From Gemmatimonadota bacterium (lineage in GTDB: Bacteria > Gemmatimonadota > Gemmatimonadetes > Palauibacterales > Palauibacteraceae): a stretch of DNA of 64,000 bases. This document shows positions 43,189 through 60,682 of the stretch, in pieces. Where the stretch lies: assembly GCA_963666735.1 (NCBI GenBank), contig OY762926.1, positions 736,001-800,000 on the forward strand. Direction: 5' to 3'. The notes beneath the pieces are model-generated. The model searched no databases and had not been told where the DNA came from. It was given only the letters and a program-made list of their open reading frames with translations. The position numbers and the translations under genes are program-made. Each line of letters starts with the position of its first letter. The stretch's first letter is position 1.

Positions 43189-43278
43189 GAGCTATCTCCT
43201 TCCAGGTGACCCTTCGGATGAATGGGAACGCGAGCGGAACCGGGCGGCCGTTCCGGCCACCGGGCCCCGCCCCTGGAA

Positions 43279-44136: not shown

Positions 44137-44212
44137 TGACTTACCTCCGTACGAGAAGCTGTTGCGCTATCGGCTGTTGAGAGCCCTTCCCCACCTCTTC
44201 GTCATCGCTTCG

Positions 44213-45772
44213 TCAATCCCTCCGACGGTCCTGGGCCCGGCGCACGAGAACGAGACCGAAGGCCCCCGTCAAGAGCATGGCCAGCAGGGGCGTCACGACG
44301 ACCGTGCTGGATGCCGGAGGTTCGAGGAGAATGTAGTACCACGTGCTCACGGAACTGCGCTTCCCGACCTCGGCGCTGGATCCGTCCCAGGCCTGGAAGG
44401 CGATGGGCGTCGGAGTGCCCTCGGCGAAGTCGAGGCCGTCGCTTTCGACCTCGATCGGACGGCGGACATAAAGCGTCCAGCGTCCCTCCTCCCACCTCGC
44501 TTCCCCGGTGACCGGGTCCTCCGTGAGCGGTTCGACCGAGCCCAGGCCCCGGCCGCGCGCGGCGCCGACACCCGCCTCCGAATCCCACGTCCAGAGATAG
44601 ACCGGCTCGCGGGTGTCCCCCATGAGGAAATACGGCCGGTCGGTGCCCTCCGGCATTTCGAAGGGGAACTGGAGGAGCACCGCGTCGGGGGGTCTCACGG
44701 CCGGCGCGCCGGCGCTGTCGAGGGCGATGGGGTCCGCGCCGTCGAGGTCGAGCGCGGCCGTGATCTTCTCCTGCCACTCGTCCCAATTCGGGTCCGGACT
44801 CATCGATGGGTCGTTCCACCGTACGCGCAGCGCGACATCGGTTCCGTCGTGAAGCCCCTGAACCCAGAGCCCGTCGACCGTCGGCGCGAAATTGCGCGGC
44901 GTCTGGACGATCTGCCCCGACATCGGGAAGTAGAATGCCTCGACGCCCGCCCAGGCCTCCTCGCCGCCATCGGCAGGGAGTCCGCTCTCGGCGCGCCCCA
45001 CGCGGACCACGTCCCGCAGCGGCGGCATCTCGCGCGGTCCGAACGAGGCAAGGTAGTGCGCCAGTTGCCACACCTCGTCCGGAGAGACGACGCCCGAGTT
45101 CATGGCGTCGATCGCCGACGGCATCGGAGTTCCGTCCAGCCCGGTCAGCATCCTCGTATGCATGTCCTCGACGCTGCTGCCGCCGTTCAGAACCCACGCT
45201 TCCGTGAGGTCCGCCGCGCGAATGGGCAGCCCCCGCCAGTCCTCGAGCGTCGGGGCCGAGGTACCGTCGCCCCGGCCGGAAAGGCCGTGGCACTCCTCGC
45301 ACAACATCGTGAGATAGGCCGCCGCCCCCGCCTCGATCGCCGCGGCGCCCCCGCCCGGATCGGATCCGAAATCCAGCGGCTCGGGCGCCGGGCCCTGGCC
45401 GAAGAACCTCGAGAAGCTCTTCAGGTAGACGATGACGTCGTCGATCTCCCGGTCCGTGAGATTGGGCCAGCCCGGCATCGTCGTGCCGGGGAGCCCGTTC
45501 TCGATCGCGAACCGGATGTCCGCGTCCGTCGGGAGCTGTCCGCTCCCGGTGGTGCGGACCTGGTAGAGCGCCTGCGTGAAATCGCGCGGCCGCGGCAGCA
45601 TCGAAGCGGCGGCCGAGCCATCCCCCTGCCCGGTCTCGCCGTGACATTCCGCGCACCAGCGGTCGTACACGACCTTGCCGGCGGCGGCCGCATCTTCCTG
45701 CCCCGCCAGCGCCGGCGAAGTGCCCGCGAACAGGGCGAGCAGCACGATTGCCGTCCGGCGCGTCGCCCTCAT
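44213..45772 (-). CDS. Exported diheme c cytochrome fused to EbdC/NxrC-like (DOMON heme b) domain, C-terminal TM anchor
   Basis: Signal peptide; CAECH and CEECH with PRDFT, GTTMP and GTPMP; then MSGQI, HDG, W.D, PYFLMGD and AWDGS..E.GK. ATG at 45772. Confidence 0.8.
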   Translation of the reverse strand: MRATRRTAIVLLALFAGTSPALAGQEDAAAAGKVVYDRWCAECHGETGQGDGSAAASMLPRPRDFTQALYQVRTTGSGQLPTDADIRFAIENGLPGTTMPGWPNLTDREIDDVIVYLKSFSRFFGQGPAPEPLDFGSDPGGGAAAIEAGAAAYLTMLCEECHGLSGRGDGTSAPTLEDWRGLPIRAADLTEAWVLNGGSSVEDMHTRMLTGLDGTPMPSAIDAMNSGVVSPDEVWQLAHYLASFGPREMPPLRDVVRVGRAESGLPADGGEEAWAGVEAFYFPMSGQIVQTPRNFAPTVDGLWVQGLHDGTDVALRVRWNDPSMSPDPNWDEWQEKITAALDLDGADPIALDSAGAPAVRPPDAVLLQFPFEMPEGTDRPYFLMGDTREPVYLWTWDSEAGVGAARGRGLGSVEPLTEDPVTGEARWEEGRWTLYVRRPIEVESDGLDFAEGTPTPIAFQAWDGSSAEVGKRSSVSTWYYILLEPPASSTVVVTPLLAMLLTGAFGLVLVRRAQDRRRD

Positions 45773-46566
45773 TCGTGCCCCCCTTCCCCTTCTTCTTCCC
45801 AAGTGCGCGGCGTGAACCCCGTCTGGTCGTAGAGATAGAGGATCACCGCCCAGATCTCGTCCTGCTCGAGGATCGACTCCCAGGCCGGCATGGCCGAATC
45901 CCACGGCGTCCCCTCGCGCGGGAGGCCGGGACCGCCCTTGACGATGCGCCAGAACACGTAGCTCTCCGTGAGCTGCGGCAGGTTGCCCGAACTCGTGAAA
46001 TCGGCGGGAACCGGGTTGAAGGCCTGCGCGTAGTGGCCCTGGCCGTCGAGCAGGTCGCCGTGGCAGGGCACGCAGTTGCGGACGTAGACCCGCTTCCCGG
46101 CCGCCATGTGCTCCTCCATGGAGCCTTCCTCGCGCAGCGGGTTCTCGAGCCCCGTCAATTCGATCGACTCGCCGCGGAAGGTGAGCTGGTTCGGCGGCGC
46201 GGGGTGTACGGCGCGCAACGTGGCCGGCGCGGCGTAGCTCGGCTTCACCCGTTCGTAGGCGAGCCAGCCGATGAGAACCGGGATCGCCACCATCAGAATC
46301 CCGCGCAGCGTCCGCCGGCCGGGCTGCACCATCGTGGCCTGGATGGGTTCGCGGAAGCGCTGCCAGCGTTCTTCGTCCGCGCTCATGTAGAGGAGGATGC
46401 CGACGAGGACGATGAGCATGTACTCCACGATGACGGAACTCGGGACCGGCGCGCTCGCCACGCCGACCACCGGAAGCACGTATCCGATCACGTACTCGAA
46501 CGCGACATATGACGCGACGACCACGATCGCACCCTGCCAGAACGGGTGGGACAGGTAACGTCTCAT
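45769..46566 (-). CDS. Membrane-anchored monoheme cytochrome c
   Basis: Three N-terminal TM helices, RAVHPAPP, CVPCHGD and WDSAMPAWE. Confidence 0.88.
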   Translation of the reverse strand: MRRYLSHPFWQGAIVVVASYVAFEYVIGYVLPVVGVASAPVPSSVIVEYMLIVLVGILLYMSADEERWQRFREPIQATMVQPGRRTLRGILMVAIPVLIGWLAYERVKPSYAAPATLRAVHPAPPNQLTFRGESIELTGLENPLREEGSMEEHMAAGKRVYVRNCVPCHGDLLDGQGHYAQAFNPVPADFTSSGNLPQLTESYVFWRIVKGGPGLPREGTPWDSAMPAWESILEQDEIWAVILYLYDQTGFTPRTWEEEGEGGHE

Positions 46567-47399
46567 CGGCCACCTCCCGCGCTGTCGGCCGGCGATTCCG
46601 CCGGATCGCCCGGAGCCTCCGCGCCGGATCCCGCGCCTCCGACGAAGAAGTTCACGAGGACATCCAGTTCCACCGGAGACATGAGATCCCCGAAGATCGT
46701 CGGCATCGTGCCGGCGAAGGCGGAGTACTCCTCGTTGATCGTCGCCATCGGATTCACGATCCCTTCGAGGACGACGGCGGGATCCTGTCCCCGCAACTCC
46801 TCGAAGGGCGGGGCGACCATGCCGCCCTCCCCGCCGAGCTGGTGGCAGGCGAGACAGCCCTGCGCCGTGATCAGGGCGACCGCGTCGACCTGGCTCGGGT
46901 CGGTGACGGCGGCGGGTGGCGGAGCGGACTCGGCCGCATCATCGGCGGCCAGCGCCGCGGCGAAGTCATCCGCGTTCACGGTGATCTCGCCACCCTGCGA
47001 CTCCAGGAAGGCGACGAGCGTCCACAGCTCGGCCTGCGACGAAGTGATGCTCTGATCGATCATGATGGGCTCGAAGCCCTCCACGATGTAGGCCGTCGGG
47101 CTGGTGAGAGACTCCCACAGGTAGTCCTTGCAGCTCTGCCCGGGTACGCGCGTGGCGCACACGCTGCCCGCCACCCCGACGAGATCCGGGGCGCGAGTGC
47201 CGAGGCCATGGCACGCCGTGCAGCCGCCCGCCCCCGCGTAGATCTCCTCGCCGATCGCCGCGAGCTCCTCGGGCGGCATGTCCGCGCTGAGCACGACCTC
47301 CCTGGGCACTGCCGACTGTACCTGCGGGATCACGTTCGCCACGAAGGTGAACACCGCCAGCGTCGCCACGACCGTGAACAGGATCTTCAGGTTCGTCAT
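46563..47399 (-). CDS. Membrane-anchored diheme cytochrome c
   Basis: N-terminal TM; CTACH, YLWESL..P.AYIV.GF..IM, CLACH and GTMP. Confidence 0.88.
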   Translation of the reverse strand: MTNLKILFTVVATLAVFTFVANVIPQVQSAVPREVVLSADMPPEELAAIGEEIYAGAGGCTACHGLGTRAPDLVGVAGSVCATRVPGQSCKDYLWESLTSPTAYIVEGFEPIMIDQSITSSQAELWTLVAFLESQGGEITVNADDFAAALAADDAAESAPPPAAVTDPSQVDAVALITAQGCLACHQLGGEGGMVAPPFEELRGQDPAVVLEGIVNPMATINEEYSAFAGTMPTIFGDLMSPVELDVLVNFFVGGAGSGAEAPGDPAESPADSAGGGR

Positions 47400-49157
47400 C
47401 TATTTCTCGCCTCCCGCCTCGGTTTCCTGATAGACGGAACGTTCGGCCAGGCCGCCGAGCCAGAAGATGAACCCGACGAGCGCGAAGAAGATGAGCACGC
47501 AGATGCTGATGATCGTCGCCGCCGGACCCAGCGCCGGGGTGAAGGCTTGCTCGCTCGTGTCGCGGATCACTTCGTAGACGTGCCAGTGCTGCCGGATCCC
47601 GCTGCGGGCGAAGCCCATCAGCCCCATGAGCCACGTAAACGTGACGGCGAGGATGAGGAGCGCGTACTGCGACCGATCCGGCATCTTCCCCCACCGGATC
47701 TCGCCCCGCGACTTGGCGCCCCGCAGCATCACCATGTCGATCCCGATGACGAACAGGATCGTCGCCAGGACCGCGAGCACCTGGTAGACGGAGAAGCCGA
47801 TCCGCACGATCGCCGTCACGAAGTAGCCGTACACCCCGTAAAAGACGACGACGACGGCGGAGAGCGCGAAGGCCGCCCCCTGCAGCATCGTCCCCGCCCG
47901 GACCCACGGTACCACGGGATCCTTGTTCGCCCTCCGGTACATGAGGAAGGAGAGGAACGTCGTCAGGATCATCAGGTTGACGGCGGTATTCTTCGCGCTC
48001 ATCACGCCGAGCACCTGCAGGAAGGGGTGCCGGATTCCTCCCATGGCCGCGATCTCGTCGCGGTCGGCGATCATCGTGTTGGGCGTGGCCCACACGATGA
48101 CTCCCAGGACCAGCACGAGCAGCATCCACTTGATGTAGGGCTGAAATCGTTCGGCTCCGGGGATCCGTCCCATCCCGATCCACAGGTAGTAGTTGCCCGC
48201 GAGGAAGAGGATGCCGATGAGGAAGGCCTGGATGATCCAGAGCCAGCTCATGAAACCGCCCATCATCGTGATGCCCATCTGCTGGCTGAACTCGTAGATC
48301 TCGCGGCCGAGCCAGTAGCCGGCGAAGGGGAGGACGATGAGGGCGCCGATCGCGATCAGGTTGCCGGTATAGCCCATCCAGTCGTAATGGGCGCGTTCCT
48401 CGTCGGTCTTGCTCGTGAGGAAGCGGTACGCGGCGTAGGCGCCGACCACCGCGCCGCCGAACACCACGTTCGCGAGCAGCCGGTGGATGTTGATCGGCAT
48501 CCAGGTCGCGTTGTTGATCGCGCTCCACAGCTGAACGGTCTGGGGCGCCGTGTCCGCCGTGAGTCCCTCGGGCGGGCTCATCATGTAGGTGAGCCACCCG
48601 TTCGCGATGAACATGACGATCGTGCCCCAGATGTTGAGCATGATCCCCAGGCACCAGTGGGCCTTCTTCGCGGCGCCCTTCTTCCACGCGTCCCACCCGT
48701 AGTAGTAGAGGTAGAGCGTGAACGACTCGAGGAAGAAGAGGCCCGCGTACACCCACATCGACGGGGCGAAGATCGCCGTCAGGTACGCCCAGAAACGCGG
48801 GTAGAGGGTCGAGAGGAAGAAGACGAGGATCGCACCCCAGATCGCGGTCGCGCTGTACGCCACGAGCAGGAGGCGGGTAAATTCCTTCGCGAGCTTGTCG
48901 TACTTCTCGTCCCCCCCGAACATCCCGATCGCCTCGATGACGACGGCGAACATGGGCACGCCGAGTACGAAGGCCGCGAACAGCAGGTGGAGCTGGGCCG
49001 CGATCCAGACCGCGCCGCGGCGGTCGAGCCCGAGGAAGTTGAACTCACCGTAGTCGGGCCCCGGAGCCTGCGCGAGGAGCGGCAGCGCGACCGCCAGCGC
49101 GAGAGCGGCCAGCAGTACGCCGCGGGCCACGACACCACGGGTCATCCAGCGCTTCAT
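47400..49157 (-). CDS. Cytochrome bd oxidase subunit I-like protein (non-canonical, bd-like)
   Basis: AQLHLLFAAFVLGVP, FFLES, NGWLTYMMSP, NIHRLLAN and GFARSGIRQHWHVY (GRQPW equivalent). No Q-loop. ATG at 49157; the track ORF is over-extended. Confidence 0.8.
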   Translation of the reverse strand: MKRWMTRGVVARGVLLAALALAVALPLLAQAPGPDYGEFNFLGLDRRGAVWIAAQLHLLFAAFVLGVPMFAVVIEAIGMFGGDEKYDKLAKEFTRLLLVAYSATAIWGAILVFFLSTLYPRFWAYLTAIFAPSMWVYAGLFFLESFTLYLYYYGWDAWKKGAAKKAHWCLGIMLNIWGTIVMFIANGWLTYMMSPPEGLTADTAPQTVQLWSAINNATWMPINIHRLLANVVFGGAVVGAYAAYRFLTSKTDEERAHYDWMGYTGNLIAIGALIVLPFAGYWLGREIYEFSQQMGITMMGGFMSWLWIIQAFLIGILFLAGNYYLWIGMGRIPGAERFQPYIKWMLLVLVLGVIVWATPNTMIADRDEIAAMGGIRHPFLQVLGVMSAKNTAVNLMILTTFLSFLMYRRANKDPVVPWVRAGTMLQGAAFALSAVVVVFYGVYGYFVTAIVRIGFSVYQVLAVLATILFVIGIDMVMLRGAKSRGEIRWGKMPDRSQYALLILAVTFTWLMGLMGFARSGIRQHWHVYEVIRDTSEQAFTPALGPAATIISICVLIFFALVGFIFWLGGLAERSVYQETEAGGEK

Positions 49158-50566
49158 CGCTTTTCTCCCCGCCCCGCGCTCCGCCGGTTCCGGGCGAAGA
49201 AGGGCATCCGTTTCGAAAAGTCCACCGGCATGGCCCGGCGGACCTCGGTCATCACCTCGAGCGTCACTTCGGTGTCCCCGCGCTCGCGCGCGAACTTTTC
49301 CACCCGCTGCGCCACCACGCCGCGCACGAAGCTGGGGATGGCGTTGAGCCGTGCGTCGGCTTCGCGGCTCCACGGGAGCTTCTGCTCTGCCGCCGAGCCG
49401 TACGTGACCGGCTGGCGCGGCTCGATCGCCTGCGCGATGCCGGGGGCCGGCTCGTAGGCGCAGGAAGGATCGGGACCGAGCAGGTCTCCGTCCACCGCAT
49501 AGGCGCGGGCGCGACAGCCGCCGCACAGCGCCCGATACTCGCAGCGTCCGCACTTCCCGCCCGGTTCGCCGTCCCGCAGCAGACGGAAGACGGTCGCCTC
49601 GCGCCAGATCTCGCCGAACGAGGCATCGGAAAGATCGCCGGCCACCTCCGGCATGTACGGGCACGGCGTCACCTTGCCCTCGGGCGTGATGCGGCAGTAC
49701 TGGACACCGCAGGGGCAGCGCGTGCGGTAGTTGAGGAGCGGCGAGGCCGGATCCCGTTCGTACACGTGCCGCATGAGTTGCGGCTGGCACTTGGAGCGGA
49801 TCATGAGCCGGCCCCGGTATTCGCGCTGGAGTTCGGCGAGCCGGGCCACGAGCTCGTCGTTCTCCTCGGGCTCGAGGCCGCGCATTCCCGCTCCCCTCCC
49901 CGTCTCGACGAGAAAATAGACGTTGAGGCAGACGGCGCCCTTCGCGTCCGCCCAGGCCGCGATGGCATCGAGTTCGTCCCGGTTTCCGCGCGTCACGCTG
50001 AACTGGATGAGGAAGTCGAGCCGATGCTCCCGGAGGCGGCCGACCGCGGCGAGGGTGTCTTCGAGAGCGCCCTCTCCGTGCCGGAAGCGGTCGTGATAGC
50101 GCGGGTTGAGGGAGTCCACGCTGAGCGCCACGCCCTGCACCCCGGCCGCCTTCAAGGAGGTGATGCGCTCGTCCGTGAGGCCGGTGCCGTTCGTGCCGAC
50201 CGTCACCGTCGCGCCGCGCTCGGAGGCGTAGGCCGCGATCTCCTCGAGATCGGAGCGCACCAGCGGCTCTCCTCCGCTGAGGATGAGAAGCGGCGACGAA
50301 CTCACTTCGAGGATCTGATCGATTACGCGGAAACAGGCCGCGGTATCGAGTTCGTTCGCGGCCGCGTGCCAGGACCCCGCCGAAATGTAGCAGTGGGCGC
50401 AGGCGAGGTTGCAGCGGCGCGTGAGGTTCCAGGCGACGACGTGAGGGATGGCGACATCGGGGTCGGCGCCCGGAGACGCGGCGGCGGGGGCGCCGTCCAG
50501 GAGCGACCCGGGCACGGCGGGGGTCCGGTGCGCGACAGCTCCCGCGGCCAGCGGGGCCCCGGTCAC
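49154..50566 (-). CDS. Radical SAM/SPASM protein (AhbD/NirJ-like) with C-terminal PCP_red-like domain
   Basis: WNLTRRCNLACAHC, SGGEPL, CPCG...C...PCPY and GKCGRCEY..LCGGCRARA...C. Tail WSREADARLNAIPSFVRGVVAQRVEKFARERG. GTG at 50566. Confidence 0.85.
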   Translation of the reverse strand: MTGAPLAAGAVAHRTPAVPGSLLDGAPAAASPGADPDVAIPHVVAWNLTRRCNLACAHCYISAGSWHAAANELDTAACFRVIDQILEVSSSPLLILSGGEPLVRSDLEEIAAYASERGATVTVGTNGTGLTDERITSLKAAGVQGVALSVDSLNPRYHDRFRHGEGALEDTLAAVGRLREHRLDFLIQFSVTRGNRDELDAIAAWADAKGAVCLNVYFLVETGRGAGMRGLEPEENDELVARLAELQREYRGRLMIRSKCQPQLMRHVYERDPASPLLNYRTRCPCGVQYCRITPEGKVTPCPYMPEVAGDLSDASFGEIWREATVFRLLRDGEPGGKCGRCEYRALCGGCRARAYAVDGDLLGPDPSCAYEPAPGIAQAIEPRQPVTYGSAAEQKLPWSREADARLNAIPSFVRGVVAQRVEKFARERGDTEVTLEVMTEVRRAMPVDFSKRMPFFARNRRSAGRGEKR

Positions 50567-52824
50567 TTCGCGCGCGATCCCTGCTCCGAAGCGGGACCCG
50601 CTTTCGCCCCTGCTTCCCCCGCATCCCCCTGCTCCGCTCCCGACTCGTCTCCCAGTTCCGTGCGCGCGAACTGCTCGACGGCGGCGCGGGCGTCGTCGGG
50701 CGAGACCATCTTGAAGTCGACGGGACAGTCCTCCGCCTGTTGTTCGATGTCGCGGATCGGACAGCGCGTCACGCCGGAGGCCTTCGCTTCCTCGATGAAA
50801 CGCTTCATCTCCTCGCTCATCCCGTCGACGCCGGCGGCCTCGGCCCGTGCCTGCTTCGCCTTCAACTCGTTGAACATCACGAGCATCGTGTCGAGGTCGA
50901 ACTCGTCGGCCGCGATCATCGCGTCCTTGTTCTCGTCCATCACGAGCGTGGTCACGCGCCACATGCCCTGGTCGCGGGCAAAGCGCTCCACCGTATTCCG
51001 GGCGAGGGGCCGCGCGATGAGCGGCACGCGGCCCAGGCGGTCAAATGCCTCGTGCGTCCAGACGATCGGGTCGGCGGCCGTGCGGTCGCGAGGGATCTGG
51101 TTGTCCGTCACCGGGCACTTCGCCATCACGGGGAGCGGGGCCTCGAAGGCGTCGGCGTCGCTCGTCTCCACGACGGTCCGCTTCATCGCCTCGCCCGCCT
51201 TCACCTCGGCGAGGGCGAGTTCCTCCGCATCGCCGATGCCCATCACGAGCTGCATGTGGGTCGGGAGGAGCTTCTTGATCGCCTCGTCGAGACGTTCGTT
51301 CGTCACGACGGGCAGCTGGTCGCGGTTCCAGAGTTCCGCCTTCTCGCCGTTCCCGCGGCCGTTACCGGCCTGTCCGACCTCGGCGATCGAGGGGGCGGCC
51401 CCGGTCTCGAGCGCTTCGCGCGCCACCTGCGCCGTGCCGTTGGTCGCGGTCTCGGGTGCCCGGTACTTCTTCTCGTCCTTCGGGTTCGGCACGAAGGCGG
51501 CCGCGTAACGGCTGCCGGGTCCGTAGTGTTCGAGGACGAACTCCTCGACGGCCTTGCGCGCGATCCCGAGCGCGAACGGCGGCACGCGCAGGATCCTCAC
51601 CTCCGCCTCGGGCGCCCACTCGAGCCCGGCCTCCCCGTCCTCTTCGATCCAGGGGATCTCCTCCGGCCGCACCTGCTCGGTCCCGATGAGGAGCACGTTC
51701 GCGTCGGAGAGGTGGACGAGGTTGTCGGCCTGCGACCCCAGATCGGTGCCCTCGATGCGGTGCGAGCCGTGGCGGGCCACGACGATGAGGGAGGGATCGA
51801 TCTCTTCGGCCCACTTGAGGAGGGCGTCGAACGGCTTCCCGATGAGGACCTGCGTCTCGATTTCGACTTCTGGGTATTCGCTCGCCATCACCTCGGCCCG
51901 CTTGATGTTCGCCTTGCAGAGGCGGAGAAGGCCCTTGTCGATGATGTTGTTATGGAGTTCTTCCTGTTCCTCGAACTTGAACACCTTCGAGGCCTGGACC
52001 GAGAGCACGTCCTTGATGTTGTGGAAGACGACGTGGTGGTACTGCACGTCGAACGCGCTCGCGATGTAGACTTTGGCCCCGTATTCGCGGGCCATGTCGA
52101 GCGCGATGCGCAGCCCCTTGTAGGCGTAGGCGGAGCCGTCCACGCCCACGAGCCACTTGCCGCCTTCGAGCGTCCGGTCGTTGCGGATGATGAGCGCGTC
52201 CTTCTCGATCCCGCGCAACGCACGCGCGACCACGCCGCCGAGGCGGCTCCGCTCCTGCCGTCCGAGACCGTGGGCGCCGATCGTCACGAGGTCGTAATCG
52301 CGCCCGGAGGTGCCCGCGAGCTTGTCCTCCTGTTCCTCATCCTCGGCCACCAGGCGGCCGCCCTCGCCCAGCTTGACGTCCGTCCGCTGCTTTTCGCTGC
52401 CGTCGTAGTTGTGGGCGATGTTCGGATCGAAGCCGATGAGGCTCGGGAGACGTCCGCCGCCGCGGTTCGCCTCGTTGATGATCTCCTCGTAGTTGATGCC
52501 CTCGAGGAGCTGCCGCGTGACGGTCACTCCGGCTTCGGCACAGCGGCGGTGGAGCTGGTCCAGGAAGCTGTCGGAGATGAGCTGCAGCCCCTTCTCGATC
52601 AGCTTGTCGTGGATCTTCCGCTGCCTGCGGATCTCGGCCGGTTCCTGGAACTGGGCCGGAAGCCCGATCTCGAGCTGGCGGAACCGGATGTCGTGGAGGC
52701 GCGCGGCGTAGACGTGGGAGCCGGTGACGCGGCCCCCGAAGCGAGCGCAGAGTTCGATGGCGCGGTCGACGGCCCAGTCCGACTCGCGCGAGTTATCGAC
52801 CGGGACAAATACCTCTCGATACAT
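50563..52824 (-). CDS. Tandem universal stress protein domains + two PCP_red-like domains + Cys-Pro motifs
   Basis: VFVPVDNS..S / GAHGLG...LGGV and LVGVDGS / ARHG...LGSQA. Then WAPEAEVRILRVPPFALGIARKAVEEF and WTHEAFDRLGRVPLIARPLARNTVERFARDQG. Confidence 0.85.
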   Translation of the reverse strand: MYREVFVPVDNSRESDWAVDRAIELCARFGGRVTGSHVYAARLHDIRFRQLEIGLPAQFQEPAEIRRQRKIHDKLIEKGLQLISDSFLDQLHRRCAEAGVTVTRQLLEGINYEEIINEANRGGGRLPSLIGFDPNIAHNYDGSEKQRTDVKLGEGGRLVAEDEEQEDKLAGTSGRDYDLVTIGAHGLGRQERSRLGGVVARALRGIEKDALIIRNDRTLEGGKWLVGVDGSAYAYKGLRIALDMAREYGAKVYIASAFDVQYHHVVFHNIKDVLSVQASKVFKFEEQEELHNNIIDKGLLRLCKANIKRAEVMASEYPEVEIETQVLIGKPFDALLKWAEEIDPSLIVVARHGSHRIEGTDLGSQADNLVHLSDANVLLIGTEQVRPEEIPWIEEDGEAGLEWAPEAEVRILRVPPFALGIARKAVEEFVLEHYGPGSRYAAAFVPNPKDEKKYRAPETATNGTAQVAREALETGAAPSIAEVGQAGNGRGNGEKAELWNRDQLPVVTNERLDEAIKKLLPTHMQLVMGIGDAEELALAEVKAGEAMKRTVVETSDADAFEAPLPVMAKCPVTDNQIPRDRTAADPIVWTHEAFDRLGRVPLIARPLARNTVERFARDQGMWRVTTLVMDENKDAMIAADEFDLDTMLVMFNELKAKQARAEAAGVDGMSEEMKRFIEEAKASGVTRCPIRDIEQQAEDCPVDFKMVSPDDARAAVEQFARTELGDESGAEQGDAGEAGAKAGPASEQGSRAK

Positions 52825-53002
52825 GGCGCTCCGTTGGACGGCGTACTGCGGCCGGTTTTACGCTGCTCGCCCCAGCCTCGCCCGGGTGCGAAGCCCGGAT
52901 GTACGCAGTCCGCGCAGATCGGCCACGGACGAGGAATTCGGCGACGCTGGTCCAAGGTTGTCGAGGCTTCCGAAAGGTCCGGGGCCCCGCTTATGCGCCA
53001 AG

Positions 53003-53031
53003 AAGTTGCGGCTGCCCACGGGGAAAGTCAA
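53003..53031 (-). promoter_or_regulatory. Candidate sigma70 promoter for the USP-rSAM-cytochrome-oxidase unit
   Basis: TTGACT, 17-nt spacer, CAACTT on the minus strand, in the 214-nt gap. The -10 match is weak. Confidence 0.4.
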
Positions 53032-53038
53032 ACGCCCT

Positions 53039-53746
53039 CTAGGGAGTCCGCGGCCAACGGAGGCGGCGGCTCCAATCCGCGGCGAAAATCGCGGCCCCGA
53101 AGGTGAAGCCGGCCGCGACGAGAAGGCTGCGGAGCCAGACGGAAGCGTCTATCGGAATCCCGCTTGCGCCTGCCGAGAGGGCCGCCTGAAGCGGGGTGTA
53201 CGGATTCCACTCGGCGGCGAGGGAGGCCCAGCCCGGAGCCGGGGTCCGGAAGAAGCCGGCGAAGTGCAGGAGAAGGAGGGAGAGCGCGGCCGAGGCGAGG
53301 GCCGCTTCCGCGAGCGAGCGCACCGCTGCCGCCACGAGCGGGCCGAGGAGGTTCGCGAACCACAGCGTGGCGAGGACGGACGGGAGGACGACGGATCCCG
53401 CCCCGAGACCATCGGCCGACCACAGGAGGATGAGGACCGCGGGCGCGAGTTGGAGCGCGTCGATCGTCATGCCCGCGAGGGTGCGCTCGAGGAGCCAGCG
53501 GGGCGCGGAGTAACCGGCGCGGAGGATCTCATCGAGCCAGCCGTCGCGGGCGTCGCGCACGGCGGGGATGGCTGAGCCGAAGGCTCCGAAGAAGACGATG
53601 AAGACGCCGAACACGGCGACCCGGTGCGGCGCCGCGGCCGCGCTGAGGGCGACGGGCGTCAGGAGGAGGAGCGGGACCGCCACGTTCCACAGGAACAACC
53701 GCCGACGCCGGAGGGCCGTGCGCCATGCCAGCCGCCAGATCGTCAC
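53039..53746 (-). CDS. ABC-2 type exporter permease
   Basis: About 6 TM helices, VRDARDGWLD and WNPY. GTG at 53746 overlaps the ATPase stop. Confidence 0.8.
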   Translation of the reverse strand: MTIWRLAWRTALRRRRLFLWNVAVPLLLLTPVALSAAAAPHRVAVFGVFIVFFGAFGSAIPAVRDARDGWLDEILRAGYSAPRWLLERTLAGMTIDALQLAPAVLILLWSADGLGAGSVVLPSVLATLWFANLLGPLVAAAVRSLAEAALASAALSLLLLHFAGFFRTPAPGWASLAAEWNPYTPLQAALSAGASGIPIDASVWLRSLLVAAGFTFGAAIFAADWSRRLRWPRTP

Positions 53747-54690
53747 CGGCCCTCCTCTTCCAGGCGGCGGCCCGTCAGCGCCACGAACACGTCCGCGAGT
53801 CCGGGTTTCCGGATGTCGACGGAAGCCACGGGAACGCCGCCGCGCAGGATCCAGGCCAGCGTCTCGGGCAGGGCTCGGCTCGGATCCCGGACTTCGAGGG
53901 TGACCGTGCTCTCGTCCCCCGTCGAGGTACGTACGCCTTCCGGGGCGGGGCCGAGGGTGTCCGGGTCGGGACTCAGCCCCGCGGCGAACCGGATCTCGAC
54001 GCGGGGACGGGCGCCGACGCGCTCGAGGAGGCGGGCCGGGGTGTCCGCCACCGCACAGCGTCCGTCGACGATGAACGCGACGCGGTCGCACTGGGACGCG
54101 GCGAAGTCCGGATCATGGGCGGAGAGCACCGCGGTCCCCCCTGCGGCGCGGTGGCCGGCGAGCGCGTCGGCGAGGGCGGCCCGGCCGCCGGGGTCCAGCC
54201 CGGCCAACGGCTCGTCGAGGAGGAGGAGCGGGGCCGCGGTTGCGAACGCCGCCGCGAGGGCGAGCCGCCGCCGCATGCCGCTCGAGTAGGTGCCGGCGGG
54301 GCGGTCCGCGTCGACGTCCAGCCCGAAGCGCCCGAGCCAGGCGTCCGCCGCGGCGCGCGCTTGCCCGGACCGGGCGCCGTGGAGTTCGAGCAGGACGACC
54401 GCATTCTCGCGCCCGCTGAGCCAGGTGCGGAAAGCGGGCTGGTCGGGGGCAAGCCAGCGCCGTCCGGCGTCATCGACCCGAGGGTCCCGGCGGATTCCCG
54501 GGACATCGTCGCCGCCCAGGAGGCGCAGGAAGGTGGATTTTCCCGATCCGTTCGGGCCGAGGAGCGCCAGGCGTTCCCCCTCCCGGACGTCGAGCGAGAG
54601 GTCCCGGAGGGCGGGACTACCATCGGGATAGTCGTAGGCGAGGGCTTCCGCCGTTACGAGCGGCGGCTCCGGCCGCGGGCCGGGGTTCAC
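53743..54690 (-). CDS. ABC exporter ATP-binding protein (DrrA-like)
   Basis: GPNGSGKST, YSSGMRRRL, LLDEP.AGLD and LADVFVALTG. GTG at 54690. Confidence 0.9.
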   Translation of the reverse strand: MNPGPRPEPPLVTAEALAYDYPDGSPALRDLSLDVREGERLALLGPNGSGKSTFLRLLGGDDVPGIRRDPRVDDAGRRWLAPDQPAFRTWLSGRENAVVLLELHGARSGQARAAADAWLGRFGLDVDADRPAGTYSSGMRRRLALAAAFATAAPLLLLDEPLAGLDPGGRAALADALAGHRAAGGTAVLSAHDPDFAASQCDRVAFIVDGRCAVADTPARLLERVGARPRVEIRFAAGLSPDPDTLGPAPEGVRTSTGDESTVTLEVRDPSRALPETLAWILRGGVPVASVDIRKPGLADVFVALTGRRLEEEGR

Positions 54691-54986
54691 GGGACGATCT
54701 CGACCCCGTCTTCGCTGACGGTGATCGCATCGACCGGACAGGACGCACACGCCTCGATGAAACGCTTCCGCGAGGCATGTTCCGGTCCGGTGAACACCGC
54801 CACCCCATCCTCGTCGAGGTCGAAGGCCTCCGGTGCTTCCTCGATGCAGTCCCCGAAGCCGACGCACAGGTCGCGGTCGATGACGGCTCGGAGTCCGTGG
54901 ACTTCCCTTTCCATCAACGGGTCCGGAGCCCGCGCCGCTTCTCCGGCTTCTCCCGCATCTCCCATCCGTCCGCCACCGTCCGTCAC
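54687..54986 (-). CDS. Ferredoxin, [3Fe-4S]-type motif
   Basis: IDRDLCVGFGDCIEEAPEAF...CASCPVDAI. Alternative start ATG 54914. Confidence 0.88.
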   Translation of the reverse strand: MTDGGGRMGDAGEAGEAARAPDPLMEREVHGLRAVIDRDLCVGFGDCIEEAPEAFDLDEDGVAVFTGPEHASRKRFIEACASCPVDAITVSEDGVEIVP

Positions 54987-54992
54987 CGGCGG

Positions 54993-55436
54993 TTACATGC
55001 CTTCCAGTCCGAGATCGGACCGGGCACGGTCCATGACGGCGGGCGTCATCTCCTCGATCCCGCGCTCCCGGGCGTATTCGTTGTAGATCTTCTTCACCAT
55101 GCCCCGCACGAAGGAGGGCACCTGACCGAGCCGCTCCACCGCGTCCACGCTCCAGCGTACGGGGCCGGGGTTCGTCAACGGGGGCGCGGGCAGGGCCTCG
55201 TCGCGCGCCTGTTCCACGCCGGCGCGGATGCCCTCGAAGTTCTCGTCGGGCACGGTCCGGCCTCCCACCTTCACGCCGAGCGAGCTCACGAGTTGGGTCT
55301 CCATGGGGTTGGCGAGCATCGCGGTCTTGCGCCCGCAGGCGGGACACCTGAATACGGCGGCCATCGTGCCGTCTCCCGGCACGGCCCGCTCGTCGAAGGC
55401 CATCTGCCGGTCGCAATCGACGCAGAGGAACTTCAT
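54993..55436 (-). CDS. Zinc-ribbon + PCP_red-like domain protein (147 aa)
   Basis: MKFLCVDCD...CPACG, NPMETQLV.SLGVK and WSVDAVERLGQVPSFVRGMVKKIYNEYARERG. ATG at 55436 overlaps the Mrp stop. Confidence 0.82.
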   Translation of the reverse strand: MKFLCVDCDRQMAFDERAVPGDGTMAAVFRCPACGRKTAMLANPMETQLVSSLGVKVGGRTVPDENFEGIRAGVEQARDEALPAPPLTNPGPVRWSVDAVERLGQVPSFVRGMVKKIYNEYARERGIEEMTPAVMDRARSDLGLEGM

Positions 55437-56323
55437 GGCGCCCCGGACCCCGCGCGAAGGGCGTCGGCCATCTGCCGCAGGGCCTCCGCCGCCCCCCCCC
55501 CGCCGGCCAGCCACCCTTCGAGCCGCCCCTCGTCGGCTGCGGCTCCCAACGCCGCGTCGAAGGGGAGGCGTGCGAGCAGGGGCGTCCGAAAGCGGCGCGC
55601 CAACTCGGCTCCGGCGTCTCCGGCGTGCAGCGGGGCGAGGGCTCCGCAGGCATCGCAGCGAACCCCCGCGAGGTTCTCCACGAGTCCCAGGATGGGGAGG
55701 TCGCGCCGCCGGGTGAGATCGAGCGAACGGGCTACGGCATCGCGGGAGGCCGCGCTCGGGATCGTGACCGCGACGATGCCCGCCAGTCCGGGGACGAGCG
55801 CGTGAAGTTCGGCGAGCCGCTGGGTGCCCGGCGGCAGGTCGACGAGGAGCACGTCCAGCTCTCCCCAGGCGACATCCGAAAGAAATTCGCGCAGGGCCCC
55901 GCGTTCCTGGGCGCCCCGCCACACGAAACCGGCGTCGGCGGGCTCACGCCAGGTGAGGGCGCGGCCGGACTCCACGAGGAGCGCCATCGACATGACGCGA
56001 ACCCCGGCCCGTGAGGAGGGTGGCGCAAATCCGTCCGGGGATTCGGCGAGGATCCCCGGCTCGATGCCGAGAAGGCGCGGTACGCTGGGGCCGTTCAGGT
56101 CCGCGTCGATCAGACCCACGCGATCCCCGCGGCGGGCAAACGCCGTCGCCAGGAGAGCGGAAACGAGACTCTTCCCCACTCCGCCCTTGCCGCTCATCAC
56201 CGCGATCACGCGCGCCACGGAGGCGAGGCGCACGGACACGCGCTCGTCCCCGGCCGCGATCTGATCGGGGAGATCGGAGCGCAGTTCGTCCACTTCGTGG
56301 TAGGTGCGGAATCCGGAGTTCAT
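55433..56323 (-). CDS. Mrp/ApbC/NBP35 family P-loop ATPase (Fe-S carrier)
   Basis: SGKGGVGKS, DADLNGPS, WRG, WGELDVLLVDLPPGT and GLVENL...CDAC. Confidence 0.9.
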   Translation of the reverse strand: MNSGFRTYHEVDELRSDLPDQIAAGDERVSVRLASVARVIAVMSGKGGVGKSLVSALLATAFARRGDRVGLIDADLNGPSVPRLLGIEPGILAESPDGFAPPSSRAGVRVMSMALLVESGRALTWREPADAGFVWRGAQERGALREFLSDVAWGELDVLLVDLPPGTQRLAELHALVPGLAGIVAVTIPSAASRDAVARSLDLTRRRDLPILGLVENLAGVRCDACGALAPLHAGDAGAELARRFRTPLLARLPFDAALGAAADEGRLEGWLAGGGGAAEALRQMADALRAGSGAP

Positions 56324-56451
56324 CGGGGATGGAAGCTCCCACCGGGCCGGGAGAGGGTCAACAGGCGCCGTAGACGAAGTTTCGGCGGGCTTCCCGCCAT
56401 CGTACGATGTTCGGGAGGGTGGCCGTAGTCCATCGTGAATCGGAACGTCCC

Positions 56452-56679
56452 ATGTCGATCATCGGGTTTCACCGTTTCCTCATCGCAACCGCTATCGTCT
56501 TCTGCGCCGTCTTCGCCGCGTGGGAGTTCAGGATCTTCGCGAGCGCCGGCGGCTTCGGAGCGCTCGCGATCGGCGTGATCTTCGCGTTCGCGGCGGCGGC
56601 GCTGGCCTACTATCTCGCCAACCTGACCAGGTTCCTGAGCGGCACGTCGCACGACTCTCCATGGCGCCGGGGGCGGTGA
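56452..56679 (+). CDS. Small two-TM membrane protein
   Basis: MSIIGFHRFLIATAIVFCAVFAAW...ALAIGVIFAFAAAALAYYL. Its stop overlaps the next GTG. Confidence 0.7.
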   Translation: MSIIGFHRFLIATAIVFCAVFAAWEFRIFASAGGFGALAIGVIFAFAAAALAYYLANLTRFLSGTSHDSPWRRGR

Positions 56680-57305
56680 GGCGCGAGGAACGGGTGGGCG
56701 GAGGCCGGCCGGTTGCGCTGTACGTCGCGGGCGCCGTGTTCCTGCTCATCATCGCCGTCGTCGTGGCCGGCTCGTTCGTGAGACCCGATCCCCTGACCTT
56801 CGTCCCCACGCCCGCCGCCCCGCAGTCTCCCATGGACGGGTTCGTGGTGGACACCGTGACGATCGATGCGCGGGACGGCTCGCGGTGGGTCCACTTCGAT
56901 TTCGACAAGGGGAGCGCGGTCGATGGACCGCTCGCCGGATGGGATCTCGCGCTCAACCGGTACCACGTCGTCGTTAACGGCGGGACCGGCTACCCGGGAG
57001 CCGGCGGGGCCATCGCCACCACTACGCCGTGGGAGGCCGTGACCGAGGCCCCCGCGTCCGGTTACGCGACGACGGAGGGGGCGCTGGAGGATGGCCCGGC
57101 GACGCCCGGACTCGAACGCTGGTATCAGTACGGGTTCTTCTCGCACCTTCTCGAACCGAAGGATGAGACGTACGTGATCCGGACGGCGGAGGGGCGCTAC
57201 GCGAAGTTGAGGATCCTGAGCTACTACTGCCCGCAGGCGACGCCCGGGTGCGTGACCCTCATGTACGGATATCAGGGGGACGGCTCGCGCCGCCTCACGG
57301 GCTGA
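56676..57305 (+). CDS. HmuY-family heme-binding protein with N-terminal membrane anchor
   Basis: IDA...WVHFDF, WDLALNRY...NGG, WYQY and YVIRTAEGRYAKLRILSYY. GTG at 56676. Confidence 0.82.
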   Translation: MRREERVGGGRPVALYVAGAVFLLIIAVVVAGSFVRPDPLTFVPTPAAPQSPMDGFVVDTVTIDARDGSRWVHFDFDKGSAVDGPLAGWDLALNRYHVVVNGGTGYPGAGGAIATTTPWEAVTEAPASGYATTEGALEDGPATPGLERWYQYGFFSHLLEPKDETYVIRTAEGRYAKLRILSYYCPQATPGCVTLMYGYQGDGSRRLTG

Positions 57306-58251
57306 ACCCGCGGGCGCGGTCGACGAGTTCGGCCGCGCCGGCCGCCAGCATGCGGCGTGCGAGGCGAAGGCCCACGTCTTCCGCCTCCGGGGCCGGGCCC
57401 TCCGCGGCATCGGCGACGGGCGCGCCACCCTCCACGTCGTAGACGGCCGCGCGCAGGCGGAGATCCTGCCCCTCCACCGACGCCCGGGCCGCAATCGGCA
57501 CGCGGCAGCCGCCTTCGAGCGCCGCGAGGAGTCCTCGTTCGGCGGTGACCTCGGCTCGGGCGACTGGATCGTCCAGCGCCCGGACGCGCGCGCCCACGCC
57601 GTCTTCAGCGGCGCGACACTGCACCGCGAGCGCACCCTGACCGGGGGCGGGCAGCCAGCCCTCGTTCATGGCGAACGCGCCGGCGGGCCACAGGCCCAGG
57701 CGCCGCAGCCCGGCCGCCGCCAGAACGAGGGCCTCGAAACGCCCCTCCTCCAGCTTTCGGAGCCGCGTGTCCACGTTGCCCCGGACCGGCCGGGGCTCGA
57801 GATCGGCCCGCGTCGCGCGCACCTGCGCCGCGCGGCGCAGCGATGACGTGCCCACGCGCGCGCCGGCGGGCAACCGCCGCAAGATCTCCGGTCCGCCGCC
57901 TTCCGCCACGGTGGAGACCCGGGAGTCCCGGACCACGAGCGCGTCGCGGGGGTCTTCGCGGAGCGGGATGGCGGCCAGCGAGAGTCCGGCGGGCGAGTCG
58001 ACCGGGAGGTCCTTGAGCGAGTGGACGGCGATGTCGATGCGGCCCCTTCGAAGGGCGCGCTCGAGGTCCTCCGTGAACAGGCCCTTGGCGCCGATGGCCG
58101 GGAGCGGCGTGTGAGGGTCGCGGTCTCCGCCGGTCGAAATGAAGCGGTAGTCGACGGAAAGACCGGGCCAGCGTTCCTCCAGCCGGTCTCCCACCCACGT
58201 CGCCTGCGCCCGGGAGAGCGGCGACCGCCGGGCCCCGATGACAAACTTCAA
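57295..58251 (-). CDS. hemC: Hydroxymethylbilane synthase (porphobilinogen deaminase)
   Basis: GARRSPLS..Q, KGLFT, AVHSLKDLP, GTSSLRR, RGNVDTRL, PAPGQGAL and LEGGC. TTG at 58251. Confidence 0.95.
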   Translation of the reverse strand: MKFVIGARRSPLSRAQATWVGDRLEERWPGLSVDYRFISTGGDRDPHTPLPAIGAKGLFTEDLERALRRGRIDIAVHSLKDLPVDSPAGLSLAAIPLREDPRDALVVRDSRVSTVAEGGGPEILRRLPAGARVGTSSLRRAAQVRATRADLEPRPVRGNVDTRLRKLEEGRFEALVLAAAGLRRLGLWPAGAFAMNEGWLPAPGQGALAVQCRAAEDGVGARVRALDDPVARAEVTAERGLLAALEGGCRVPIAARASVEGQDLRLRAAVYDVEGGAPVADAAEGPAPEAEDVGLRLARRMLAAGAAELVDRARGFSP

Positions 58252-58670
58252 CCGACCATGGAGGAGTAGGTCCCCCGCCCGACCGCGCAGAGGCGGCCCT
58301 TGTCGTCGTGCACGTCCACATCCGACACGGAGATGGTGCGTCCGTAGCGCCGGAGGCGGGCCGTGGCGCGCAGCCACGGACCGGTGCAGGGGCGCAGATA
58401 GTCGACCCGCAGCGAGATCGTGGGGACCCCGCCTCCCGCTCTCACCGCAACGGCCATGTCCCCCGCGATGTCGATCAGCGAGGCGACCGGACCGCCATGA
58501 TAGATCGTGCCGTCGCGGGTCAGCCCGGGCCGCATGATCATCCGAAGGACGACGGTGTCCTCGTCCTCGCTCATCTCCGCCAGGCTGACGCCGAGCGCGA
58601 CGATGGCCTCGGATCCGGCGAGTATCGACTCGACCAGGATCCAGGCGGGCGAAGCTCTGTTCGACTCCAC
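58248..58670 (-). CDS. PaaI-family hotdog thioesterase
   Basis: HGGPVASLID and TISLRVDYLRP. Confidence 0.88.
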   Translation of the reverse strand: MESNRASPAWILVESILAGSEAIVALGVSLAEMSEDEDTVVLRMIMRPGLTRDGTIYHGGPVASLIDIAGDMAVAVRAGGGVPTISLRVDYLRPCTGPWLRATARLRRYGRTISVSDVDVHDDKGRLCAVGRGTYSSMVG

Positions 58671-60378: not shown

Positions 60379-60679
60379 AGTAGTCCTCGTCCCGCATCAC
60401 GCCCTTCCGGAGCAGCTTGGCGGTGTAAACGATCGCCGTGTAGGCGAGGAACCCGTAAGCGGCGTAGAAGGGCGGCAGTCCCTCCCAGTCGCGCTCGGGG
60501 TGGCGCAACTCGGACCATCCCATCCGCAGCTGCAGGAAGTTCACGAAGTCGAGCGCCAGCAGCACGCCGCACACCACGAACAGGATCGCAATCAGGCGCT
60601 TCCAGCGCTTCGGGTCGTCGAAGTAGTGCCTGCCCGAATCTTCCGGCCGTCCGCCCATGCCGTGCTTGTCAGAGGCCAT
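60368..60679 (-). CDS. Small two-TM membrane protein within Mrp operon
   Basis: HYFDDPK...PFYAAYGF...MRDEDYYD, sandwiched between two antiporter subunits. Confidence 0.75.
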   Translation of the reverse strand: MASDKHGMGGRPEDSGRHYFDDPKRWKRLIAILFVVCGVLLALDFVNFLQLRMGWSELRHPERDWEGLPPFYAAYGFLAYTAIVYTAKLLRKGVMRDEDYYDR

Positions 60680-60682
60680 GGC

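Follow-up and report, generated by a model that had tools for sequence, protein, structure and literature searches.

A conserved gene cluster with an AhbD/NirJ2-type radical SAM enzyme and repeated PCP_red domains adjoins a bd-like oxidase gene in Gemmatimonadota

The radical SAM enzyme AhbD converts coproheme to haem b in an oxygen-independent reaction and belongs with NirJ2 to a branch of radical SAM/SPASM enzymes that acts on iron tetrapyrroles. According to the accessible parts of two reviews, AhbD provides some organisms of the coproporphyrin pathway with an oxygen-independent alternative to ChdC (PMC13564367, PMC7242693), which catalyses the same step (PMC7242693), and it is known in such organisms without other Ahb genes (PMC13564367). 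The OR-N (N1/N2) subfamily of cytochrome bd, to which the "bd-like oxidase" of Nitrospira and Nitrospina belongs, has a many-helix CydA-like subunit that resembles quinol-oxidising CydA weakly and, in the available text of its description, is encoded with c-type cytochromes rather than with CydB (Murali, Gennis and Hemp, bioRxiv 10.1101/2021.01.16.426971). As stated in the portions available of two further papers, the main nitrite oxidisers are presumed to use these proteins as terminal oxidases, and experiments have yet to confirm their subunits, cofactors and function (PMC10839748, PMC12342949). The PCP_red domain (PF08369) forms the C-terminus of BchB/ChlB in dark-operative protochlorophyllide reductase (DPOR; PDB 2xdq, 3aek, 2ynm). 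Here we analyse a 64,000-nucleotide stretch of a Gemmatimonadota genome (contig OY762926.1, positions 736,001 to 800,000; hereafter the window), in which positions 49154-56323 encode three proteins that carry PCP_red, among them an AhbD/NirJ2-type radical SAM enzyme, and several accessory proteins directly upstream of a gene for a bd-like oxidase subunit.

We lean towards the view that this cluster is a cytoplasmic accessory (biogenesis) module that makes or delivers haem for the OR-N-type bd-like respiratory cluster and that is built on the AhbD/NirJ2-type radical SAM enzyme.

A gene cluster coupled to a bd-like oxidase gene

Genes in this G+C-rich genome, which near-identical proteins assign to Candidatus Palauibacter, were called by codon-position G+C content combined with family searches. 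All genes of the module lie on the minus strand, and the interval 49154-56323 extends exactly from the stop codon of the radical SAM gene to the start codon of the Mrp gene. In the order of transcription, the module and the respiratory genes that follow it are listed below with the family matches that identify them (USP, universal stress protein; Fe-S, iron-sulfur).

55433-56323, minus strand: Mrp/NBP35/ApbC-type P-loop ATPase (Fe-S cluster carrier), 296 amino acids; Pfam ParA/NUBPL 206.4 bits
54993-55436, minus strand: Zn-ribbon and PCP_red protein, 147 amino acids; Pfam PCP_red 48.5 bits
54687-54965, minus strand: small single-cluster ferredoxin; Pfam Fer4_13 43 bits, Fer4_15 37 bits
53743-54690, minus strand: ABC transporter ATPase (DrrA-like); Pfam ABC_tran 76 bits; NCBIfam drrA 143 bits, below the cut-off
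53039-53746, minus strand: ABC-2 type permease with several hydrophobic segments; Pfam ABC2_membrane 42.9 bits
50563-52824, minus strand: tandem USP protein with two PCP_red copies, 753 amino acids; Pfam Usp 107.7 bits, PCP_red 53.7 bits
49154-50515, minus strand: radical SAM/SPASM protein with C-terminal PCP_red, 453 amino acids from the GTG at 50515; Pfam Radical_SAM 89.2 bits, SPASM 31.7 bits, PCP_red 56.0 bits
47400-49157, minus strand: cytochrome bd-like subunit I (OR-N type), 585 amino acids; Pfam Cyt_bd_oxida_I 74 bits
46563-47399, minus strand: dihaem c-type cytochrome, 278 amino acids, with an N-terminal anchor (one hydrophobic segment) and two CxxCH motifs; NCBIfam CxxCH domain 39.8 bits
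45769-46566, minus strand: membrane-anchored monohaem cytochrome c, 265 amino acids, with N-terminal hydrophobic segments and one CxxCH; Pfam Cytochrome_CBB3 37.8 bits
44213-45772, minus strand: C-terminally anchored fusion of a dihaem cytochrome c with an EB_dh-type (haem b) domain; Pfam Cytochrom_C 67.5 bits, EB_dh 45.5 bits

Start and stop codons overlap by four nucleotides at the Mrp/Zn-ribbon (ATGA), ferredoxin/ABC ATPase, ABC ATPase/permease and radical SAM/bd-like (ATGA) junctions. The ABC ATPase begins with a GTG that overlaps the ferredoxin stop codon, the start of the ferredoxin is uncertain (ATG at 54965 or 54914), and a 215-base gap separates the permease from the USP gene. By this layout, the genes from Mrp to the cytochromes are predicted to form one tightly coupled minus-strand operon. 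A scan of positions 43000-58500 yielded no promoter-like site and four terminator-like sites, against 4.8 expected. Contigs from RNA libraries (four runs from four studies) cover parts of the bd-like, radical SAM and USP genes at 92-99% identity, and a single 693-base contig from a relative spans the radical SAM/bd-like junction. These contigs are a weak hint at most, as they show neither transcription nor its strand or level and could reflect DNA carry-over. The initial annotation of this DNA had described an Mrp ATPase, a ferredoxin and an ABC exporter in a cluster that runs directly into the bd-like gene. Pfam matches bear out the ATPase, the ferredoxin and both ABC components, and the radical SAM stop and bd-like start do share the four nucleotides ATGA; the exporter stands as a feature of this locus and not as a core component, since the ABC pair is optional and occurs in 5 of 15 related loci.

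The bd-like subunit scores 30.6 bits against E. coli-type CydA (NCBIfam), contains about 12-13 hydrophobic segments and is 49-55% identical to bd-like proteins of Nitrospirota. Its context is that of the OR-N group: a CydA-like fold, no adjacent CydB and three c-type cytochromes downstream, one of them with an EB_dh domain. The protein is probably of the OR-N type, an assignment made by its identity to the Nitrospirota proteins and its number of hydrophobic segments and not by a tree. The dihaem cytochrome c is kept after the bd-like gene in related loci. The cytochrome c/EB_dh protein, which also matches NCBIfam DMSO_red_II_gam (78.9 bits), recurs in bd-like clusters of Nitrospirota.

Distribution ties the module to the oxidase in two phyla. 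Among 145 genomes of the same order, in which bd-like genes were called at E <= 1e-30, PCP_red is present in 86 and a bd-like gene in 83; 82 genomes carry both, 58 carry neither and five disagree. The discordant genomes, with completeness of 70-91%, comprise four with PCP_red only (G029, G074, G097, G116) and one with the bd-like gene only (G042). Individual genera are patchy yet concordant; in genus g12, for example, 2 of 16 genomes are positive for both. A second sample of 201 Nitrospirota genomes contains PCP_red in 97 and a bd-like gene in 65. All 65 bd-like-positive genomes carry PCP_red, and none of the 104 PCP_red-negative genomes has a bd-like gene. These profiles, together with the co-location of the genes, bear out the proposal in the initial annotation that the cluster is a real unit connected to the bd-like module.

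Gene order was compared in 15 related loci that we retrieved from Gemmatimonadota. The order Mrp, Zn-ribbon-PCP_red, ferredoxin is kept in 13/13 loci that show both of the first two genes, and the ferredoxin directly follows the Zn-ribbon gene in 14/15. USP-PCP_red and bd-like genes are each present in 14/15 loci and a full radical SAM gene in 12/15; USP-PCP_red lies directly before the bd-like gene, or before the radical SAM-bd-like pair, in 14/15. A sister family keeps the gene set and changes its order: its radical SAM gene lies upstream of Mrp rather than in front of the bd-like gene.

In Nitrospirota the parts of the module are dispersed, yet the adjacency of Mrp with Zn-ribbon-PCP_red and that of PCP_red proteins with the bd-like gene recur. 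Four Nitrospirales genomes (G145, G146, G147, G149) hold 12 PCP_red copies each at four places. In all four, a Zn-ribbon-PCP_red ortholog with the same ribbon and two PCP_red copies comes after the best Mrp homolog (42-43% identity), and a small cysteine-rich protein with two PCP_red copies heads the bd-like cluster, which ends with the cytochrome c/EB_dh protein. The link between Mrp and the Zn-ribbon-PCP_red protein is thus supported by adjacency in 13/13 Gemmatimonadota loci and 4/4 Nitrospirales genomes. Two other Nitrospirota genomes (G182, G320) show the order bd-like, cytochrome c, cytochrome c/EB_dh, tandem USP without PCP_red and radical SAM-PCP_red, and the PCP_red of the radical SAM protein is the sole copy in either genome. 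A scan of the USP-PCP_red family found at least 585 loci, of which the best 80 are nearly all from Nitrospirales; radical SAM-PCP_red is the next gene after USP-PCP_red in 76 of these 80. The neighbours of this pair are metK and ahcY in the two loci that were annotated.

The radical SAM enzyme, its partners and the PCP_red domain

The best NCBIfam matches of the radical SAM protein are NirJ2 (TIGR04055; 273.6 bits) and AhbD (TIGR04545; 269.2 bits), both over the full length of the model, whereas the best peptide-maturase models reach about 153 bits at most (GeoRSP 152.8, mycofactocin 142). Its orthologs in Nitrospirota score 310-331 bits against the NirJ2 and AhbD models. The translation contains the CxxxCxxC motif as CNLACAHC and a C-terminal SPASM cysteine cluster. 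From these profile scores, the protein is placed in the haem-modifying AhbD/NirJ2 branch of radical SAM/SPASM enzymes. It shares with AhbD a radical SAM core that bears CxxxCxxC and a SPASM domain whose auxiliary-cluster region is rich in cysteines. It differs from AhbD in its C-terminal PCP_red domain and in scores of 269-274 bits against cut-offs of 500. It also travels with a tandem-USP partner, in this order additionally with Mrp, ferredoxin and Zn-ribbon-PCP_red proteins, and its module tracks the bd-like oxidase rather than general haem synthesis.

As in the coproporphyrin-pathway organisms that have AhbD alone, other Ahb genes appear to be missing here: the genome has no match to AhbC and encodes a ChdC-like protein (240.6 bits, cut-off 253; window 23704-24546). 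ChdC/HemQ, although it carries out the same step as AhbD, is unrelated to the radical SAM enzyme in fold and chemistry. The ChdC/HemQ-like gene adjoins histidine-utilisation genes about 25 kb from the module, and in several genera of the family a ChdC-like gene shares a contig with the module, at a distance within 10-25 kb.

Members of the Mrp/NBP35/ApbC family of Fe-S carriers are defined by a ParA/NUBPL domain, a deviant Walker A motif and a CxxC pair for a bridging cluster. The Mrp protein of the module has all three; its GKGGVGKS motif (G45-K51) and its C-x2-C pair (C223, C226) are invariant in 15 orthologs. Scores against the equivalog models fall below their cut-offs (MrpORP, NF041136, 210.5 against 450 bits; ApbC, NF008669, 139.5 against 348 bits). 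A second Mrp paralog with 39% identity is encoded elsewhere in the genome, which marks the Mrp of the module as a probable dedicated paralog beside a housekeeping-like one. Unlike known carriers of the family, this Mrp is always followed by a Zn-ribbon-PCP_red gene. The four cysteines of that ribbon are invariant in 15 orthologs, one of them from Nitrospirales. The 15 orthologs also keep the sequence N-P-x-E-T-x-x-V-x-S-L after the ribbon in protein order, and all 15 end in methionine (-LEGM, -LEEM or -KFM).

The USP protein contains two Usp stretches (PF00582), in keeping with tandem-type members of the family, and the family consensus retains G-x2-G-x9-G-[ST], which we take to be the Usp motif. 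Its PCP_red-bearing orthologs in Nitrospinota and Nitrospirota are 33-49% identical. None of the three PCP_red host proteins of the module, the USP protein included, has a membrane segment.

The initial annotation had noted a shared pattern at the C-terminus of the radical SAM protein, twice in the USP protein and once in the Zn-ribbon protein, and had likened it to PCP_red. All three proteins score above the Pfam gathering cut-off of 32.5 bits for PF08369 in hmmscan (56.0, 53.7 over two stretches and 48.5 bits, respectively). The four copies are confirmed, one of those in the USP protein being partial:

49238-49372, minus strand: PCP_red copy at the C-terminus of the radical SAM protein (Pfam)
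50926-51060, minus strand: full PCP_red copy in the USP protein (Pfam)
51529-51618, minus strand: partial PCP_red copy in the USP protein; 30 of 45 profile positions, 22.4 bits alone, below the cut-off
55020-55154, minus strand: PCP_red copy in the Zn-ribbon protein (Pfam)

A search of the whole 3.98 Mb genome found exactly these four copies. Their MAFFT alignment shows the motif W-x3-A-x2-R-[LI]-x2-[VI]-P, in agreement with the initial annotation. When 25 copies from this locus and related ones are combined into a profile, it matches the C-terminal ~50 residues of BchB/ChlB in the PDB (2xdq_B, residues 456-510, E 6.4e-14), which identifies the two as the same domain, and it also matches the solved stand-alone domains 2kru and 2l09. 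In an AlphaFold2 model of the Zn-ribbon protein, residues 90-140 form a confident three-helix C-terminal domain (predicted local distance difference test score 94-96). According to Foldseek, the predicted fold agrees with 2kru at a root-mean-square deviation of 1.1 Å over 51 columns (probability 1.00) and with the BchB/ChlB chain 2ynm_D at 1.4 Å over 48, a comparison made with this one modelled copy. A search of the ESM Atlas with the PCP_red part returned PCP_red clusters alone, at 0.82-0.83, below the level at which matches were counted.

The resemblance to BchB/ChlB stops at this domain. Pfam detects no Oxidored_nitro (nitrogenase-like) domain in the three host proteins, their matches to DPOR_BchB cover approximately positions 421-512 of the 512-position model at 33-37 bits against a cut-off of 490, and no additional PCP_red copy exists in the genome as a candidate for BchB. 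Outside BchB, PCP_red is mostly repeated, and its hosts are USP, radical SAM/SPASM, Zn-ribbon and ChdC-like proteins. A profile search of 1.84 billion representatives found 1860 PCP_red clusters at E <= 0.001 and 716 at E <= 1e-10, with named members from Nitrospinota and Chloroflexota/Dormibacteraeota. Among the best 150 representatives, 128 have 2-5 copies. Architectures were scanned with Pfam in 76 of these 150 (the first 60 and 16 picked for length, a choice biased to long proteins):

USP and PCP_red: 36/76
PCP_red only: 29/76
radical SAM and/or SPASM and PCP_red: 8/76
rubredoxin-like ribbon and PCP_red: 2/76
three PCP_red copies and a haem-oxygenase-like fold: 1/76
BchB: 0/76

The protein with the haem-oxygenase-like fold (P0171, metagenomic, 463 amino acids) combines three PCP_red copies with a rubredoxin-like ribbon and a CADD/BesC-type haem-oxygenase-like di-iron oxidase domain. 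We considered it as a fourth tetrapyrrole-related host and rejected it, as NCBIfam places the domain with di-iron oxidases of the CADD/BesC type. A 329-amino-acid protein of the Nitrospirales genome G145 (L121:6362-7348), encoded amid genes for ribosomal protein S1, SppA and HU, consists of four PCP_red copies alone.

Possible roles of the module

Since the radical SAM enzyme belongs to the haem-modifying branch, the cluster is best read as serving cofactor maturation for the respiratory complex encoded downstream. At the catalytic core, the AhbD-like enzyme would act on an iron tetrapyrrole; the dedicated Mrp/NBP35 paralog would load its [4Fe-4S] clusters, and the small ferredoxin would reduce its Fe-S clusters. 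The tandem-USP and Zn-ribbon proteins may be fixed partners of the enzyme, the former possibly sensing nucleotides. As an independently folding three-helix module, PCP_red would mark late tetrapyrrole enzymes and their helpers (BchB, the AhbD-like radical SAM enzyme and a ChdC-like protein, described below). It would most likely mediate the hand-off of substrate or product or the assembly of partners; recruitment of an ATPase appears less likely. The product, haem b made independently of oxygen or, less likely, a modified haem, would be destined for the bd-like complex of the adjoining downstream genes, either through dedicated synthesis or through delivery. A role in serving the periplasmic EB_dh (haem b) domain is conceivable for the HmuY-like protein encoded beside the module and for the ABC exporter in the loci that have one.

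Tetrapyrrole-related genes also surround the cluster (HmuY-like, hemC and haem O synthase genes), and in Nitrospirota PCP_red is joined to a domain that resembles a second enzyme type of haem synthesis. In three loci from genomes that lack a bd-like gene, a protein of ~340 amino acids carries an N-terminal PCP_red, the sole copy in the genome, followed by a Chlor_dismutase/ChdC-like domain (59-69 bits by Pfam in two of the loci):

L125:4036-5058 (G194), PCP_red-ChdC-like fusion
L126:3243-4256 (G273), PCP_red-ChdC-like fusion
L127:4083-5114 (G202), PCP_red-ChdC-like fusion

Nine further Nitrospirota genomes match the fusion in frame length and match pattern only. The genes next to the fusion (TtuA-like, DciA, HNH, MurJ) give no functional clue. 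These fusions suggest that two unrelated enzymes of the coproheme-decarboxylase type have recruited the same small module.

Our searches of the literature found no relevant description that combines PCP_red/PF08369 or AhbD with a bd-like oxidase, and the publications available to us assign PCP_red no role outside chlorophyll synthesis. The terms "radical SAM" and "universal stress" are absent from the available main text, supplements excluded, of the OR-N preprint (10.1101/2021.01.16.426971) and of PMC10839748 and PMC12342949. The accessory gene set is a new addition to the bd-like oxidase of which we found no description in print, although the operon-context supplements of the preprint may list neighbouring genes. 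A haem-type radical SAM module in 82/83 bd-like-positive genomes of the order and in 65/65 of Nitrospirota offers a handle on the cofactor of this oxidase and on its synthesis at low oxygen. The module also gives a first functional context outside chlorophyll synthesis to a domain found in at least 1860 protein clusters.

Several observations weigh against a haem-delivery module for the oxidase. The radical SAM enzyme scores below the AhbD and NirJ2 cut-offs and is thus no equivalog of either, which leaves its substrate to be deduced from family placement. ChdC homologs are patchy in the order (60/145 genomes; missing from 31 module-bearing genomes and present in 5 without the module), a pattern that neither confirms nor excludes redundancy and is compatible with ordinary haem b and with a modified haem. 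Co-occurrence among related genomes overstates their independence, and joint presence might reflect a microaerobic lifestyle and not a direct link in function. In Nitrospirota, 32 of the 97 PCP_red-positive genomes have no bd-like gene, and 29 of the 32 hold a single PCP_red copy; PCP_red as such is therefore not specific to the bd-like oxidase. Within 10 kb of the USP/radical SAM pair, the best 80 Nitrospirales loci contain neither a bd-like gene (0/80) nor Mrp (0/80), so the link in Nitrospirales rests on genome-level co-occurrence and on the other PCP_red genes. The ChdC-like domain of the fusions is divergent (50-56 bits to HemQ_actino, cut-off 235, in three loci) and its activity putative. 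Finally, PCP_red has no conserved His, Cys, Met or Tyr for ligation of haem iron; its invariant residues are W, A and P.

The initial annotation had interpreted PCP_red as a docking tag through which Mrp, recognising the domain as BchL would recognise BchB, is recruited to three clients and assembles with them on the USP protein as a scaffold. Its broader idea of a maturation machine is retained in part, as the conserved unit, the haem-type radical SAM enzyme and the link between Mrp and the Zn-ribbon-PCP_red protein all stand; the docking mechanism is not supported, and we rate it as quite improbable. Mrp and BchL are both of the SIMIBI class, Mrp matches Fer4_NifH (17 bits) and DPOR_bchL (21.5 bits) weakly, a radical SAM enzyme of this kind needs three Fe-S clusters, and the Mrp and Zn-ribbon-PCP_red genes are translationally coupled through ATGA as well as adjacent in both phyla. 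This adjacency does not single out the domain, however, since the Zn ribbon and PCP_red are conserved to the same degree in the protein next to Mrp. In G182 and G320 the only PCP_red is that of the radical SAM enzyme and the USP partner has none, which indicates that the domain needs no other tagged proteins. Mrp is also missing from the surroundings of the Nitrospirales USP/radical SAM pairs, and some genomes that have no bd-like gene encode PCP_red as a fusion with a ChdC-like domain. ChdC-type enzymes carry no Fe-S cluster and would have no use for an Fe-S carrier. Nor does the DPOR literature at our disposal contain a statement that the C-terminal 50 residues of BchB contact BchL. The available text ascribes an action in trans on protochlorophyllide to a BchB helix of residues 398-420 (PMC12022308), and the PCP_red match in that same protein lies at ~481-532. 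The final helices of BchB may pack against the other half of the tetramer.

Two other functions of the enzyme itself have to be set against a role in serving the oxidase. The radical SAM-PCP_red protein could be a general oxygen-independent coproheme decarboxylase with the function of AhbD, located near the oxidase because both are used at low oxygen. AhbD is among its two best family matches and, in the accessible sources cited above, a documented anaerobic alternative to ChdC (PMC13564367, PMC7242693); 31 of 86 module-bearing genomes of the order lack a detectable ChdC homolog, so that the enzyme could be their sole decarboxylase, and the Nitrospirales pair adjoins metK and ahcY instead of oxidase genes. 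We nevertheless consider a housekeeping role unlikely, because 58 of 145 genomes of the order lack both PCP_red and the bd-like gene yet must make haem, gain and loss of the two are concordant within genera, all 65 bd-like-positive Nitrospirota genomes carry PCP_red, and the radical SAM stop codon overlaps the bd-like start codon. Such a role would also leave unexplained the dedicated Mrp paralog, the Zn-ribbon protein and the PCP_red proteins inside Nitrospirales bd-like clusters. Very unlikely, in our judgement, is a protein maturase that installs a cross-link or a formylglycine-like residue in the bd-like subunit or a cytochrome, with PCP_red as the recognition element. In its favour, peptides or proteins are the substrates of most characterised SPASM enzymes, a sequence comparison with solved structures ranks PqqE (80.8 bits), SkfB and CteB nearest, and Nitrospirales bd-like clusters contain two FGE-sulfatase-family genes. 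The PDB ranking is uninformative, however, as no AhbD-type structure is among the six sequence matches; haem-type models score ~270-330 bits compared with at most ~180 bits for any peptide-maturase model, and the other hosts of PCP_red (BchB and the ChdC-like protein) are tetrapyrrole enzymes or their relatives.

A bolder form of the haem-delivery reading, which strikes us as improbable, would have OR-N-type oxidases depend on a dedicated cytoplasmic haem relay. The AhbD-like enzyme would make a special or specially delivered haem, PCP_red would be a hitherto unrecognised domain for tetrapyrrole hand-off, shared by BchB, AhbD-like and ChdC-like enzymes, and the repeat proteins (USP-PCP_red, Zn-ribbon-PCP_red and the protein of four PCP_red copies) would carry the cofactor to the membrane complex.

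Neighbouring genes and other bd-like clusters

Three genes flank the module and its cytochromes:

43282-44007, minus strand: CarboxypepD_reg-like protein, between the cytochromes and the cox genes; Pfam CarboxypepD_reg 35.7 bits
56661-57305, plus strand: HmuY-like (haem-binding family) membrane-anchored protein with one N-terminal hydrophobic segment, divergent from Mrp; Pfam HmuY 60.1 bits
57295-58251, minus strand: porphobilinogen deaminase (hemC), beyond the HmuY-like gene; Pfam Porphobil_deam 229.5 bits

The HmuY-like gene lies beside the module in 9 of the 15 related loci and hemC in 3. From the CarboxypepD_reg-like gene onward, window positions 38786-43188 of the same strand hold a complete haem-copper oxidase operon (coxB, coxA, coxC and subunit IV) together with a haem O synthase gene, which scores 281 bits (cut-off 210). 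Taken as a whole, the region between Mrp and ctaB resembles a single respiratory super-cluster. On the other side, the minus strand upstream of hemC (window 58684-63938) carries three Proton_antipo_M genes and one Oxidored_q2 (chain 4L-like) gene, members of a membrane module of the Mrp-antiporter or complex-I-like kind.

CarboxypepD_reg-like proteins recur beside bd-like genes in both phyla. The Nitrospirota homologs (L128:1923-3413 and L130:5223-5951) are encoded just upstream of the bd-like gene, and the protein may be a further structural or assembly subunit. In locus L130 (Nitrospirota G254), a NosL gene of the copper chaperone family (152.9 bits; L130:10602-11108) directly follows the cytochrome c/EB_dh gene of the bd-like cluster, a possible hint at copper in bd-like complexes. 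In a Nitrospirales locus (L120; G145:C1:3660000-3679999), genes for an O-methyltransferase, a DUF420 membrane protein, two FGE-sulfatase-family proteins and a DUF3047 protein lie between two bd-like paralogs.

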